Source of the DNA: Patescibacteria group bacterium
GTDB taxonomy: Bacteria; Patescibacteriota; Patescibacteriia; Magasanikbacterales; GWA2-37-8
Direction of reading: 5' to 3'
Length of the DNA stretch: 64,000 nt
NCBI GenBank assembly: GCA_041661385.1
Contig: JBAZUP010000003.1
Location: 36,299 to 100,298 of the forward strand
Shown here piece by piece: positions 13,365 through 56,592 of the stretch. Below the pieces are notes generated by a model. It was given only the letters and a program-made list of their open reading frames with translations. It was not told the DNA's origin and made no database searches. How positions within the stretch are numbered: the first letter of the stretch is position 1; each line of letters opens with the position of its first letter. Position numbers and translations under genes: made by a program.

Positions 13365-15374
13365 GTGAAAAATCCGATGCAAACAGATTTCCAACTCAGC
13401 CTATTTGAAGAACAACCATCCCAAGAATACATCAATTTAGTAAGCCAAATAACAAAATACGACATCCTCTACCACGTAAAAAACATATCCGAAATCCCCG
13501 ATCACGAATACGACCAACTATACCGCCAATTATTAGACCTCGAAACCCAACACCCGGAATGGATAACCAAAAACTCACCAACACAGCGAATCCAGCCCGA
13601 ATCCTCAACCCCAAACACCAACACGGTACCCGTAAAAATGCTATCACTTAAAAACGCCCTAAACGAAACCGAACTACTAAGTTTCTGCAATAAAATCCAA
13701 AAAGACCATCCGGAAACCAGTTTTATTGCCGAACACAAAATCGACGGACTATCCATAAGCTTACTATACAAAAACGGCACATTAACTGAAGCAAAAACCC
13801 GGACCGGAGAAAACATCTTCGCTCAAGCAACTGCAATAAACAACATACCCCACAAACTAACCGGAGACTACCCGAACGAAATCGAAGTGCGTGGGGAAGT
13901 GTATATGCCTAAAGCCGATTTTGAACGCGTCAACCAAGCGCTAGAGACTAATAATCAACCCTTGCTGGCTAATCCCCGCAACGCCGCGGCCGGCGCCATG
14001 CGCCGCCTCGACACACAAAAAACGAAAGACTACAACCTGTCCGCGTATATCTATGCCACGCCGATAAAATGGCGCGAAACACACCGCAAATTACTGAAAT
14101 TCCTTCACGAACTAGGCTTACCAATTAACACCTCGTCCTTAATCTGCAATACAAGCCAGGACGTTTTAGAATTTTGCAACTATACCAACCAAAACCGCCA
14201 TACTTTGCCTTACGAAATCGACGGCATGGTGATAAAAATAAACGATTGCGACCTACAAGTAAAATTAGGCGAAACATCCCACGAACCACGTTGGGCAATC
14301 GCCTATAAGTTCCCGCCCGAAATCGCAATAACGCAAATATTAAGTATTGATATTACGGTAGGACGAATGGGTGTGTTAACACCTGTTGCCAACCTAACAC
14401 CGATACAACTTGCCGGAACAACCGTAAGCCGGGCCACGTTACACAATTTCGATTTTATCAAAGAAAAAGATATCCGAATAAACGACTTTGTACAAATCGT
14501 AAAATCCGGAGAAATAATCCCTAAAATACTCAAAGTAGTAATTGAAAAACGCCCGGAATACACCGAAAAATACATTGAACCAGATACTTGTCCAGTTTGT
14601 TGTGAACAAACAACCAAAAACGACGGAGAAGTAGCCGTAAACTGCACAAACCCCTTATGCCCGGCAATGATCCGACGCGCCGTATGCCATTTTGCAAAAA
14701 AAGACGCAATGGACATTGAAGGACTGTCCGAACAAACCATAGACCTATTATTTGAATACTCGCTTATTAAGGATTGTACCGACCTGTATTTACTGCGTAA
14801 AGACACCCTGATAAACCTGCCACGCTTAGGCGATAAAAGCATCGATAACCTGCTACAAAACATCGAGAACAGCAAAAAACAAGGGTTGTCGCGCGTTTTA
14901 TACGCACTAGGATTGAAATATGTCGGCAGAACAGCCTCGCGAATAATAACCCAAAAATATCCAACAATGGAATTAATTACCGCAGCCCGCGTTTCCGACA
15001 TCTTAAAACTCGAAGGAATCGGCGAAGCAATCGCCGACAGCCTGGTAAAATCACTGACCAAGCCCGAAATCAAACTACAAATCCAAAAACTAACTGAAGC
15101 AGGAGTAAACATGACCGAAAAAACATTGCAACAAACCCAATCCGGATTAACCGGCAAAACCATCGTAGTAACCGGAACACTAACAAACTACAGCAGAGAA
15201 AGCATCAAAACCCGCCTATTATCACTAGGCGCCAAACCGTCCGAAAGCGTAAGCGCAAAAACCAACTACGTACTGATCGGCGACAAACCCGGAGCGTCCA
15301 AAATTGACAAAGCCCGCGCCCACAACGTAAGAACAATAACCGAAGACGAATTCGAAAACATGGCAGCGGCATAA
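13365..15374 (+). CDS. ligA: NAD-dependent DNA ligase LigA
   Basis: adenylation motif KIDGLS, OB, Zn-finger Cys cluster, HhH and BRCT-like C-terminus; AAGGAG RBS, GTG start. Confidence 0.9.
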
Positions 15375-15389
15375 GAAAGGAATATTATC

Positions 15390-15824
15390 ATGAACGATTA
15401 TTTAGCACTAAAAAAGAATCAGGCAGACCGATTAGACCTATTCACAAAAGACAATATGTTTTTTGCATTTAGCAAACAACAACTCGAAGAAGGTATGAAA
15501 AGTTTAGGCGTAACAGATACGTCACAATTATCAAGCATACCGGGCGGTGGTATTATTTTGAAAGATAAAGTTGCTGAATATAAAGAACTCGGGACAGCTT
15601 TCAGCGACGAAATGCAAAAAGCCATTGACTCGGACACAACCGGAGAAGGCTTTATTTACAACATGTTCTTGTACGAACTAGACAACCACGAATACAGCTA
15701 CACCGGCGAACTAGACCAAACACTAGACGCTTTAGACTTAACCTTAGAAGCAGTAAACGCAAGCCAACCCTTGCTAAACGGACTTAACTTAGCCATTAAA
15801 AAGCAAAGACAAATGTACGCTTAA
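15390..15824 (+). CDS. hypothetical protein
   Basis: GAAAGGAATATT RBS. Confidence 0.5.
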   Translation: MNDYLALKKNQADRLDLFTKDNMFFAFSKQQLEEGMKSLGVTDTSQLSSIPGGGIILKDKVAEYKELGTAFSDEMQKAIDSDTTGEGFIYNMFLYELDNHEYSYTGELDQTLDALDLTLEAVNASQPLLNGLNLAIKKQRQMYA

Positions 15825-54695: not shown

Positions 54696-54720
54696 TATTC
54701 ATTAATATAAAGGAGAAAAC

Positions 54721-56592
54721 GTGAGATTATTTATCGCTGAAAAACCTAGTGTTGCAAAAGAAATTGCCGCAGTACTCGACAGTAATTACAAAAAAGAAAA
54801 CGGTTATTTTCGAACAAAATCCGGATTGGTAAGTTGGGCATATGGACATTTATTCACAGCTTACGAGCCAAAAGATTATGACGAAAAATTTGAAAAATGG
54901 TCACTAAAGGATTTACCGATTATTCCGGAAGAATGGAAAATAAAAGTCAATCCAAATGCAAAAGCACAATTCAAAATTTTACGCGACTTGCTAAAAGATT
55001 GTACCGAAATAGTTCACGCCGGCGACCCCGACCGTGAAGGCCAACGGATTATCGATGACATCATAACTTACACCAAAACAAAAAAACCGGTTGTACGTAT
55101 GATCCTGAATGCGCTGGATGAAGATAGTATAAAAACGGCGTTGAAATCTTTAAAAGATAATCGGGCGTTTTTCAATCTTTCAAAAGCTGCTGAAGCACGA
55201 CAACGATGTGACTGGTTATTGGGAATGAATGGTACAAGATATTATTCATTAATGGCACAAAAAAGCGGATACCCGCTAACGATAAATGTTGGCAGAGTAA
55301 AAATACCAACAATGAATTTAGTAATTAAACGCGAAACAGAAATTAAAGATTTTGTTTCTGAAAATTATTTCACAATCGGCGCGGAATTCAGCACGATAAA
55401 TAAAAATCCGGACACAATTTTTCCAAGTATATGGATAAAAAACGCAAACAAGAAAAATGAAAATATTGGCAAAGAAATCAACGAAGAAAATAACGAAAAC
55501 AAAAACGAAAAAAAAGAAATTCGCTATTCAGAAAAAGACAAAGATTACATTATAAACAAAATGCAATTAATCGGAAAAAATGCGGAAGGATTAATTGAAA
55601 ATATCGAAAATATTCCGAAAATTGTTCCACCGCCGTTGCCGCATTCTTTATCATCGTTGCAAGTGGCAGCCGGCAAAAAATACAAGATATCACCAAGCGA
55701 AGTTCTTGCAACGGTGCAGACACTTTACGAAAAAAAATACGTATCTTATCCGCGATCAGATTGCAATTTTATTCCTGAATCGCAACATCAAGACGCAGAA
55801 ATTATTCTGCAAAATTTGAAACTATATTTTCCAAAAGCGTTACTTGCTGACACGCGAATAAAAAACAAAAGTTTTGATATGACAAAGGTTTCTGCGCATC
55901 ACGCAATCATTCCTACAAAAGTGAGTGTTGATATTGACAAGCTTACTTTAAATGAAAAAAACATTTACACATTAATTGCAAATTCCTACATCGTGCAATT
56001 TATGCAAGCCTGGAAATATACTCACACCGTTTATACGATTTTATTTAATAATGAAACTTTTGAAGCAACGGGAAACGTAACCAACCAACTTGGCTGGAAA
56101 CAAATTTTAGACAACACCGAAACAAAAAAAAGAACAAATTCTGCTGCAGAAATTGTTCTTCCGGAGATGAAAAAATCAGAAAAAGTTCGTTATCTAAAAA
56201 CTACAATCAACGCCAAAAAAACCAAACCGCCGGAACGATATACGCAATCAACTTTACTCGACGCTATGCGAAAAATCGCAAAATATATCGAAGACGAAAA
56301 GCTTGCTAAATTAATGAAAGATATTAAAGGAATTGGCACCGAAGCAACCCGGGCAGAAATAATAAAATCACTATTGTCGCAAGGTTTCTTCGCAGAAACC
56401 GATAAAGTTCTTACCCCAACAGAAAAAGCCTATACAACGGCTGAGTATGTATCTAAAGAATTATTAATGCCTGATCAAACAGCGTTATGGGAATTTAAAT
56501 TAAATTCCATCATGGACGGAACATTAAAATCCGACGTTGTAGTACGAGAATATTCACAATATATTGAAAATATTTGCAAAGGAAACCAATAA
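54721..56592 (+). CDS. topB: type IA DNA topoisomerase (topoisomerase III, TraE-like)
   Basis: MRLFIAEKPSVAKEIA Toprim start; DPDREGQ; GYVSYPRSD active-site Tyr region. Confidence 0.85.
   Translation: MRLFIAEKPSVAKEIAAVLDSNYKKENGYFRTKSGLVSWAYGHLFTAYEPKDYDEKFEKWSLKDLPIIPEEWKIKVNPNAKAQFKILRDLLKDCTEIVHAGDPDREGQRIIDDIITYTKTKKPVVRMILNALDEDSIKTALKSLKDNRAFFNLSKAAEARQRCDWLLGMNGTRYYSLMAQKSGYPLTINVGRVKIPTMNLVIKRETEIKDFVSENYFTIGAEFSTINKNPDTIFPSIWIKNANKKNENIGKEINEENNENKNEKKEIRYSEKDKDYIINKMQLIGKNAEGLIENIENIPKIVPPPLPHSLSSLQVAAGKKYKISPSEVLATVQTLYEKKYVSYPRSDCNFIPESQHQDAEIILQNLKLYFPKALLADTRIKNKSFDMTKVSAHHAIIPTKVSVDIDKLTLNEKNIYTLIANSYIVQFMQAWKYTHTVYTILFNNETFEATGNVTNQLGWKQILDNTETKKRTNSAAEIVLPEMKKSEKVRYLKTTINAKKTKPPERYTQSTLLDAMRKIAKYIEDEKLAKLMKDIKGIGTEATRAEIIKSLLSQGFFAETDKVLTPTEKAYTTAEYVSKELLMPDQTALWEFKLNSIMDGTLKSDVVVREYSQYIENICKGNQ

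Follow-up and report, generated by a model that had tools for sequence, protein, structure and literature searches.

The window analysed here is a stretch of 64,000 nucleotides (positions 36,299 to 100,298 of contig JBAZUP010000003.1, hereafter C3) from assembly GCA_041661385.1, filed as a Patescibacteria group bacterium, and it covers about 60% of a circular plasmid of about 105.8 kb. The contig (105,904 bp) has a GC content of 36.4%, versus 39.8–43.1% for the remaining contigs of this 1.09-Mb assembly; its first 133 bp recur as its last 133 bp with 99.2% identity, and it is therefore a closed circle. Nearly every long open reading frame (ORF) of C3 lies on the + strand. Pfam models were searched at E≤0.001 against 89 + strand ORFs of the window and 40 ORFs of the remainder of the contig. 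The plasmid is conjugative and self-transmissible, with a Rep3/iteron replicon, a MOBQ relaxase, a TraG/VirD4 coupling protein and a VirB-type type IV secretion system (T4SS), so that the conjugative element proposed by the original prediction, a model's reading of the bare sequence, is confirmed by Pfam. This work mainly concerns two genes of its long co-oriented block, encoding an NAD-dependent DNA ligase (LigA) and a divergent beta sliding clamp (DnaN), and the possible role of this block in the establishment of the plasmid after transfer (Table 1).

Table 1. Genes and sequence features of the window (positions counted from its first nucleotide; aa, amino acids)
Feature	Position	Strand	Evidence or remark
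NAD-dependent DNA ligase LigA, full length	13365..15374	+	six Pfam domains; NCBIfam equivalogs
DUF7659 protein, directly 3' of LigA	15390..15824	+	Pfam 1.1e-35
Divergent beta sliding clamp, DnaN homologue, 401 aa	44794..45999	+	Pfam, TIGR00663, AlphaFold, Foldseek
Candidate origin of transfer (oriT)	53177..53206	-	inverted repeat and TGCGCC core; about 115 nt upstream of relaxase
MOBQ relaxase (MobA/MobL)	53301..54695	+	PF03389 5e-22; NF041496 MobQ 1.3e-22
GC-rich structured repeat of 221 nt, three copies	3256-3476, 15841-16061, 17254-17474		each upstream of + strand genes
RadC-like JAB-domain protein, 250 aa	3910..4662	+	PF04002 4.6e-40; TIGR00608 136.7 vs cut-off 133.85
Orphan DNA methyltransferase with DUF4942, 548 aa	5242..6888	+	DUF4942 4.9e-30, MTS 6.5e-5
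DprA-like protein (SLOG/Rossmann), 188 aa	22194..22760	+	phrog_768 1.6e-15; GC3 0.50
Single-stranded DNA-binding protein (SSB), 104 aa, OB fold only	37050..37364	+	Pfam SSB 1.5e-29
MazF/PemK toxin-antitoxin	37908-38246	+	Pfam
YefM/YoeB toxin-antitoxin	39004-39511	+	Pfam; TIGR02116 77.5 vs cut-off 51.8
Orphan C5-cytosine DNA methyltransferase, 538 aa	42458..44074	+	Pfam 3.1e-29; PADLOC MTase models
MazG-like nucleotide pyrophosphohydrolase, 91 aa	44434..44709	+	PRA-PH 8.5e-7, MazG 6.1e-5; phrog_2245 2.1e-8
ParA partition ATPase	47901..48677	+	Pfam AAA_31 1.3e-49
Nine iterons marking the vegetative origin (oriV), spacing 20-22 bp, core YTACGAC	49415..49603		directly upstream of Rep3
Rep3-family replication initiator	49629..50831	+	Pfam Rep3_N 7.2e-20, Rep3_C 8.8e-9
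Two extra iteron copies	50842 and 50895		after Rep3 gene
Plasmid-type primase, CHC2 zinc ribbon and Toprim, 317 aa	51470..52423	+	Pfam
Topoisomerase III	54721..56592	+	Pfam 3e-91; NF005829 616 bits vs cut-off 597
T4SS: VirB8, VirB9, VirB10, TraG/VirD4, TraD-like, VirB11, VirB2, VirB3	56564..64000	+	Pfam

The clamp gene lies about 3.4 kb upstream of oriV, between the MazG-like gene and ParA/Rep3. The domains of its product exceed their Pfam cut-offs (PF00712, PF02767 and PF02768, with 61.0, 69.2 and 44.9 bits), the protein scores 168.1 bits on TIGR00663 (cut-off 137.65), and a sequence search matched 55 solved clamps, the best at 5e-27. The original prediction had left open whether this protein adopts the clamp fold. 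It does: the AlphaFold model built from a 74-row alignment reaches a mean predicted local distance difference test score (pLDDT) of 92.0 and a predicted TM-score (pTM) of 0.89 (a fold from the single sequence, with a pLDDT of 35.9, was discarded in its favour), and all top Foldseek matches of this model are DnaN clamps, with TM-scores of 0.80–0.85 normalized by the query and 0.86–0.91 by the target. The best match is the clamp of Rickettsia bellii (6man_A, E 8e-32, TM-scores 0.84/0.88), and the Escherichia coli clamps align at about 0.82/0.91. The near-invariant residues of the clamp family are retained, according to the same 74-row alignment.

The clamp has very few close relatives. The search of 5.8 billion clusters gave just two close matches, partial proteins with 73–74% identity, and an exhaustive scan of 1.84 billion representatives found only 2 proteins with E≤1e-30. 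Identity is 30% for the best full-length relative and does not exceed 34% for the listed relatives beyond the two partial ones. The 26 dnaN loci found in contigs of GTDB genomes are 23–30% identical to the plasmid clamp and mostly belong to alphaproteobacterial chromosomes; the search of IMG/VR yielded none. By tblastn, DnaN relatives occur in 379 of the 72,556 PLSDB records, with at most 30% identity (49 of these records being rated conjugative and 302 non-mobilizable), and in 52 of 50,697 phage records.

The likely start of LigA is the ATG at 13377, giving a protein of 665 aa that carries the adenylation domain (PF01653, 8e-74), the OB domain (2e-32) and the HhH, BRCT, Ia and zinc-finger domains, and that largely exceeds the cut-offs of the equivalogs NF005932 (728.7 bits vs 369) and TIGR00575 (707.2 vs 444.45). 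The KIDG adenylation motif lies at residue 125; the zinc-finger model scores 21.1 bits, under its cut-off of 25.8, yet four cysteines are present at positions 409, 412, 427 and 432. The closest relatives are 53% and 47% identical (the latter from a Negativicutes metagenome-assembled genome), the others, mostly from Firmicutes, being about 44% identical. Relatives were detected by tblastn in 254 of the 72,556 PLSDB records, 26 of which are rated conjugative, with at most 41% identity, and in 1,210 of the 50,697 phage records. Ligases and clamps are thus indeed unusual on plasmids, as had been proposed, and many of the PLSDB records with relatives of LigA or DnaN are chromids, megabase replicons or mislabelled pieces of chromosome. 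For example, the LigA of the 63-kb 'plasmid 29' of Legionella adelaidensis was rejected as a plasmid precedent, its neighbours (minDE, trpE and ABC transporter genes) indicating a chromosome piece.

The composition of these genes is heterogeneous. The GC content at third codon positions (GC3) is 0.34 for the clamp gene and 0.47 for ligA, versus 0.24–0.36 in backbone genes, and the high values of ligA and of the DprA-like gene suggest that they were acquired later, from other donors. Furthermore, the DUF7659 protein encoded directly downstream of LigA belongs to a phage-associated family, whose atlas clusters are mainly from Uroviricota, so that LigA may be a later arrival derived from a phage.

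The feature that suggests a link between the two proteins is found at the N-terminus of the ligase. Residues 6–10 of the 665-aa form (13392..13406, + strand) read QLSLF, a perfect match to QL(S/D)LF, the consensus of the beta-clamp-binding motif given, like the binding of ligases to clamps, in the available parts of PMC4976356 and PMC4549789. This is the sole QL(S/D)LF among the ORFs of at least 100 aa of contigs C1, C2 and C3 (about 348,000 residues, spurious frames included). No clamp-binding motif, even in a loose version, was found within the first 45 residues of any of the 119 other best LigA homologues. Loose clamp-binding patterns gave only four further weak matches in other proteins of the plasmid + strand; the primase, topoisomerase III and the methylases are not among these, nor is Rep3, which has no match to the loose pattern Q[LIVM]xL[FLIMWY]. 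The QLSLF with which LigA starts, absent from these 119 homologues, points to a clamp-ligase pair encoded by the plasmid.

Structure prediction is consistent with such a pair. The complex of the clamp with residues 1–60 of LigA was predicted with a score of 0.53 (0.50, 0.57 and 0.53 in the individual runs), rated as weak support, versus 0.00 for the best of three controls; contacts agree by at least 77% between runs and the pLDDT of the partner is at least 67. Of 157 solved complexes, 116 attained the mark used for such predictions, as did 2 of 215 mismatched pairs; the passes with scores of 0.60 or less comprised both of these mismatches but just 18 of the 157 solved complexes. As clamp-peptide complexes have already been solved, the passing score may mirror known structures rather than real binding.

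The direction in which the block would enter a recipient depends on oriT. On the minus strand, the candidate consists of the inverted repeat GTTTCT-TT-AGAAAC (53206-53193), GCGG and then TATTGCGCCTTC (53188-53177), so that the nick would fall near 53182/53181. An inverted repeat, a short spacer and TAAGTGCGCCCT likewise stand just upstream of mobA in a Citrobacter MOBQ plasmid (MobA identity 45%); this region aligns with the candidate, and both lie on the strand opposite to the relaxase gene. The MOBQ oriT consensus is NWACCNNTAAGTGCGCCCTYNN in the available part of PMC3832669, and the candidate agrees with its core at 8 of 12 positions, including a contiguous TGCGCC. Most likely, the relaxase nicks the minus strand at this site, upstream of its own gene. 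If so, the approximately 53 kb to the left of the candidate would enter the recipient first and the relaxase and T4SS genes last, and the transferred strand would be the template of all the + strand genes. The original prediction had described the replication and repair genes as co-oriented and upstream of oriT: those from the primase to RadC do lie on the + strand, to the left of the site, but this oriT is a candidate only.

The other genes named in the original prediction (SSB, primase, topoisomerase III, MazG, RadC and DprA-like) are, like LigA and DnaN, all present, intact and on the + strand; the interval of 13365..56592 in which they had been placed nevertheless leaves out RadC, which lies before its start. 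Only LigA and DnaN are unusual, genes for a primase, topoisomerase III, SSB and RadC being commonplace on conjugative plasmids. The plasmid primase scores 97 bits on the DnaG equivalog, under the cut-off of 284, and the DprA-like protein has no Pfam DprA match at E≤0.001. The absence of an acidic tail in SSB, also predicted from the sequence, was confirmed: the protein ends in ...PQFLSPRK and such a tail is found in none of the downstream frames. A second SSB gene, split by a frameshift, lies elsewhere on the plasmid (C3:25358-25740); an acidic tail (...SEDDIII) closes its downstream frame, and the gene could be a pseudogene or result from a sequencing error.

The block left of the candidate oriT holds, besides LigA and the clamp, an SSB gene, two methylases without nuclease partner, MazF, YefM/YoeB and several helix-turn-helix (HTH) regulators, the primase gene being located at its very edge. 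The methyltransferase with DUF4942 matches the PADLOC MTase_II model (7.8e-13) with no nuclease partner nearby, and no partner nuclease was detected by PADLOC near the C5-cytosine methyltransferase. The three copies of the 221-nt repeat are 79–90% identical and would form a long imperfect hairpin of 73 predicted pairs, 9 of which show compensatory changes, the fold of the single-stranded DNA having a z-score of -3.5 or -4.0 depending on the strand. A search for sigma-70 hexamers found 1 promoter-like site, outside the repeat, versus 0.7 expected, and none convincing within the repeats. These repeats may represent elements of Frpo/ssi type, acting as promoters or priming sites on single strands. 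In addition, a 44-nt palindromic AT-rich motif with TAACTAAGTTAGT-like arms is present at 16501-16544, downstream of the 16067 ORF, and at 36455-36498, in a stretch upstream of ssb that holds few genes; one of the many HTH regulators might use it as its operator.

The plasmid replicates by a Rep3/iteron theta mechanism. Its relaxase scores 80.5 bits on NF041496, under the equivalog cut-off of 200, has an N-terminal domain 45–50% identical to that of MobA from Fusobacterium and enterobacterial plasmids, and contains ...HSQYI... and ...HVHIM..., which we take to be the catalytic tyrosine and histidine motifs. The run of T4SS genes continues past the end of the window with VirB4 and VirB6 (Pfam), and TraG is 42–44% identical to IncP-type TraG. 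The remainder of C3 includes a thin type IV pilus cluster (PilN, secretin, ATPase, platform protein, pilins and prepilin peptidase, all by Pfam), in which a pilin-like protein encoded at C3:9478-10539 carries a phage tail-collar domain (Pfam Collar 6.5e-5). The cargo includes a 1,338-aa inverse-autotransporter-type adhesin, pentapeptide-repeat and DUF4116 proteins, TnpB, a major facilitator superfamily (MFS) transporter and a two-component system. The TnpB/Cas12f-like OrfB_IS605 gene (C3:27132-28214) lies beside genes for the MFS transporter, a LuxR-type regulator and a methyltransferase, in the only cargo patch of the plasmid that is rich in minus-strand genes. Two tRNA genes, tRNA-Ser(UGA) at 1186-1274 and tRNA-Tyr(GUA) at 1304-1387, both on the + strand, were identified by Rfam (55 and 49 bits) and ARAGORN; Rfam detected nothing else. 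PADLOC found no defence system, and a megablast search of PLSDB with 40 kb of the window gave no match.

The organism to which the assembly is attributed is probably not the host of this plasmid. With a completeness of 97.7% and a contamination of 0.96%, the assembly contains neither Omp85/BamA nor LpxC; C3 encodes a secretin, VirB9/VirB10 and an inverse-autotransporter beta-barrel, which are parts that need an outer membrane. The tetranucleotide correlation of C3 with C1 and C2 is 0.77, the other contigs correlating with one another at 0.92–0.95. The TraG of C3 scores 371 bits on PF02534, and the best of 400 other sampled genomes of the phylum reaches 114 bits with a partial match, the rest giving at most 49. 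Given this need for an outer membrane, the lack of BamA and LpxC, the tetranucleotide signature and the outlying TraG, C3 is probably mis-binned and belongs to a co-occurring diderm (outer-membrane-bearing) bacterium. The nearest relaxases (50% identity) are from Fusobacterium plasmids, one of which also carries a DUF4116 gene. The plasmid LigA, DnaN and SSB are 36%, 24% and 42% identical to the chromosomal copies of C1, and are therefore not recent duplicates of them; this comparison was dropped as evidence of redundancy, C3 being probably foreign to that organism. More generally, the presence of a 106-kb plasmid that needs an outer membrane in the bin of a bacterium without one makes host-plasmid inferences from this assembly unsafe.

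The original prediction went further and attributed to the element its own replisome, able to complete complementary-strand synthesis and nick sealing independently of host factors. This does not stand, since the search of 89 ORFs of the window and 40 of the remainder revealed neither a DNA polymerase nor any clamp-loader subunit or replicative helicase: no family of the DnaX/HolA/HolB or DnaB type was detected on the plasmid by Pfam (E≤0.001) or NCBIfam, and none of its unannotated ORFs is long enough to encode Pol III alpha. A clamp needs a loader and a polymerase or another client, so the plasmid must use, and supplements, the machinery of its host. Older work on F summarized in the available part of PMC7736820 indicated that complete transfer required the Pol III of the recipient. 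The idea of element-encoded partners, with which the tail-less SSB would work, fares better, being strengthened by the QLSLF at the N-terminus of LigA.

The most natural reading is that the block is an establishment or leading-region toolkit and not an autonomous replisome, because its genes, all in one orientation, are found on the side of the candidate oriT that would enter the recipient first. According to the available parts of PMC11541004 and PMC7736820, relaxase genes usually belong to the lagging region, and the SSB, methyltransferase and toxin-antitoxin genes of leading regions are co-oriented, the transferred strand being their template. Moreover, PMC11541004 Supplementary Table 1 includes in its top 100 leading-region families one that is homologous to the Pol III theta subunit (1,165 members), a precedent for a replisome-subunit homologue in such regions. 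We therefore propose, with a probability of roughly 0.55, that the block of about 53 kb is an oversized leading (establishment) region in which a private clamp and a LigA with a clamp-binding motif have been added to the standard kit.

Under this proposal, the genes would enter in the order primase, Rep3, ParA, clamp, MazG, Dcm, toxin-antitoxin pairs, SSB, DprA-like, LigA, methyltransferase and RadC. Plasmid and host primases would prime the incoming strand, which the tail-less SSB and the DprA-like protein would coat and protect, and synthesis would be carried out by the clamp loader and the Pol III/Pol I of the recipient. The plasmid clamp would offer extra or orthogonal docking sites, tethering the plasmid ligase to nicks and thereby allowing quick sealing of the new strand, with undefined auxiliary roles for MazG and RadC. 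The plasmid would thus supplement the host replisome without replacing it. A stricter version, in which a private clamp-ligase module acts during establishment, the plasmid's own clamp being loaded on the primed incoming strand and recruiting LigA through QLSLF, is rather doubtful.

Several observations weigh against this proposal, whose mechanism is predicted at every step. The genes ligA and dnaN are 29 kb apart and differ in composition, and were therefore not acquired as a unit. The LigA of Mycobacterium tuberculosis has been reported, in the available part of PMC3335792, not to bind the clamp directly. The supposed leading region also contains Rep3, ParA and oriV and is therefore not purely concerned with establishment, and LigA is about 40 kb from oriT, far past the enrichment over about 30 ORFs described for leading regions in the available part of PMC11541004. 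Supplementary Table 1 of that paper, which covers the top 100 and unknown families, contains no DNA ligase or clamp family, and Pfam and PHROGs revealed, at the thresholds used, neither ArdA, PsiB and KlcA/ArdB nor any further family known for anti-restriction. The oriT candidate itself has 4 mismatches to the 12-nt MOBQ core; a literal search for this core with up to 3 mismatches gave 20 matches versus 29.6 expected, and the composite pattern that matches once, versus 0.02 expected in the window, was devised after the site had been seen. In addition, a weaker GCGCCCC hairpin is present on the + strand (53139-53195), where a nick would reverse the direction of transfer. It was ranked lower as a nick region, as it agrees by eye with 6 of the 12 core positions and lacks a correctly spaced inverted repeat.

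The clamp, and perhaps the ligase, could instead serve the steady-state theta replication of the plasmid, where they might raise the clamp supply locally or tune copy number or host range. The proximity of dnaN to oriV fits such a vegetative role, as do the many Okazaki nicks that replication of a 106-kb plasmid yields and the dnaN copies carried by large plasmids and chromids, most of the PLSDB records being non-mobilizable; but Rep3 shows nothing like a clamp-binding motif under the loose pattern, and the orientation of the genes and their neighbours (methyltransferases, toxin-antitoxin pairs and SSB) suit a leading region. We consider this explanation unlikely as the main one, although the two roles are compatible with each other.

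Two further explanations appear still harder to sustain. The divergent clamp and ligase could be inhibition-resistant substitutes that maintain plasmid DNA synthesis and repair while factors of the recipient or of a competitor act on the host clamp or ligase, or while the incoming DNA suffers damage from nicking defences. Extra copies of the clamp in producer strains confer resistance to clamp-targeting antibiotics, and the plasmid clamp has kept a canonical fold although, two proteins apart, nothing found among the 1.84 billion representatives exceeds 34% identity to it. Anti-defence genes are also known, in the available part of PMC11541004, to cluster in such regions, but none of the known families was detected nearby with Pfam, PHROGs or PADLOC, no inhibitor is known in this system, and an NAD-dependent LigA would not evade NAD-depleting defences; this insulating role is accordingly judged improbable. 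Passive cargo, in which LigA, DnaN and other repair-type genes would derive from chromosomes or phages without any plasmid-specific function, would account for the mosaic composition, for the phage-associated DUF7659 gene that follows LigA and for the frequency of NAD-ligases in phages, and the plasmid does carry obvious cargo (MFS transporter, two-component system, TnpB). Nevertheless, both genes are intact and retain catalytic or near-invariant residues despite deep divergence, which argues for selection; LigA carries a perfect clamp-binding motif that its relatives lack, and co-orientation is strictly preserved. Mere cargo seems just as improbable.

The way in which a conjugative plasmid has its incoming single strand converted to sealed duplex within a foreign recipient remains poorly understood. 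The leading regions known so far provide SSB, anti-restriction and SOS-control functions, and a clamp together with a ligase that bears a consensus clamp-binding peptide would, if the proposal of an enlarged leading region holds, add a new class of establishment functions. If the stricter clamp-ligase module also holds, the sealing and repair of the new strand would not depend on the recognition of foreign partners by the recipient clamp, and the module would be an add-on to the replisome that widens host range, a type of function not so far reported in leading regions. Nothing relevant on the function of plasmid-encoded LigA or DnaN was found in the open-access papers searched. What is new here is a divergent beta-clamp carried by a plasmid alongside a LigA with an apparently gained N-terminal clamp-binding motif.

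The extra copies of dnaN and ligA known from megaplasmids, chromids and phages (379 and 254 plasmid records, 52 and 1,210 phage records, respectively) provide a first comparison. None of them is close to the genes described here (at most 30% identity for DnaN and 41% for LigA), and most of the plasmid matches are from non-mobilizable large replicons or mislabelled pieces of chromosome. The transfer module resembles those of the RSF1010-type MOBQ plasmids by the N-terminal domain of its relaxase (45–50% identity) and, through the comparison with the Citrobacter plasmid, by an inverted repeat followed by a TGCGCC core opposite to the relaxase gene. Unlike these modules, it sits in a self-transmissible 106-kb plasmid with its own T4SS, its core differs at 4 of 12 positions and its primase is encoded by a gene separate from the relaxase gene. 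In RSF1010, the primase is fused to the relaxase.

Like the leading regions of F, ColIb-P9/R64 and related conjugative plasmids (with ssb, psiB, ardA, orphan methylases and Frpo/ssi promoters), as described in the available parts of PMC11541004 and PMC7736820, the block lies beside the (candidate) oriT on the side away from the relaxase, has a single gene orientation for which the transferred strand would be the template, encodes SSB, orphan methylases and toxin-antitoxin systems, and contains repeated structured non-coding elements. It differs from them by its size of more than 50 kb, by the inclusion of oriV, Rep3 and ParA, by a full LigA and a beta-clamp, by an SSB without acidic tail and by the lack of detected ArdA, PsiB and KlcA.

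The proposed interaction has its closest bacterial counterparts in E. coli and Helicobacter pylori, where an NAD-dependent ligase also binds the hydrophobic cleft of the clamp through a short peptide motif, no clamp-binding site having been reported earlier for a ligase according to the available part of PMC4976356. In that same source, the H. pylori motif is weak, internal and near the BRCT domain, whereas the plasmid LigA carries a perfect consensus at its extreme N-terminus and its candidate partner is encoded by the very plasmid that carries the ligase. In this last respect the plasmid comes nearer to phage T4 (available part of PMC6212786). T4 encodes an ATP-dependent ligase and a PCNA-like trimeric clamp, whereas the plasmid encodes a bacterial-type LigA and a beta-type clamp, and T4 also provides a polymerase, a clamp loader and a helicase, the plasmid having neither polymerase nor loader. 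Nevertheless, in both cases a mobile element encodes a clamp together with a ligase that binds it, the gp45 clamp in T4 and, by prediction, the divergent DnaN of the plasmid.

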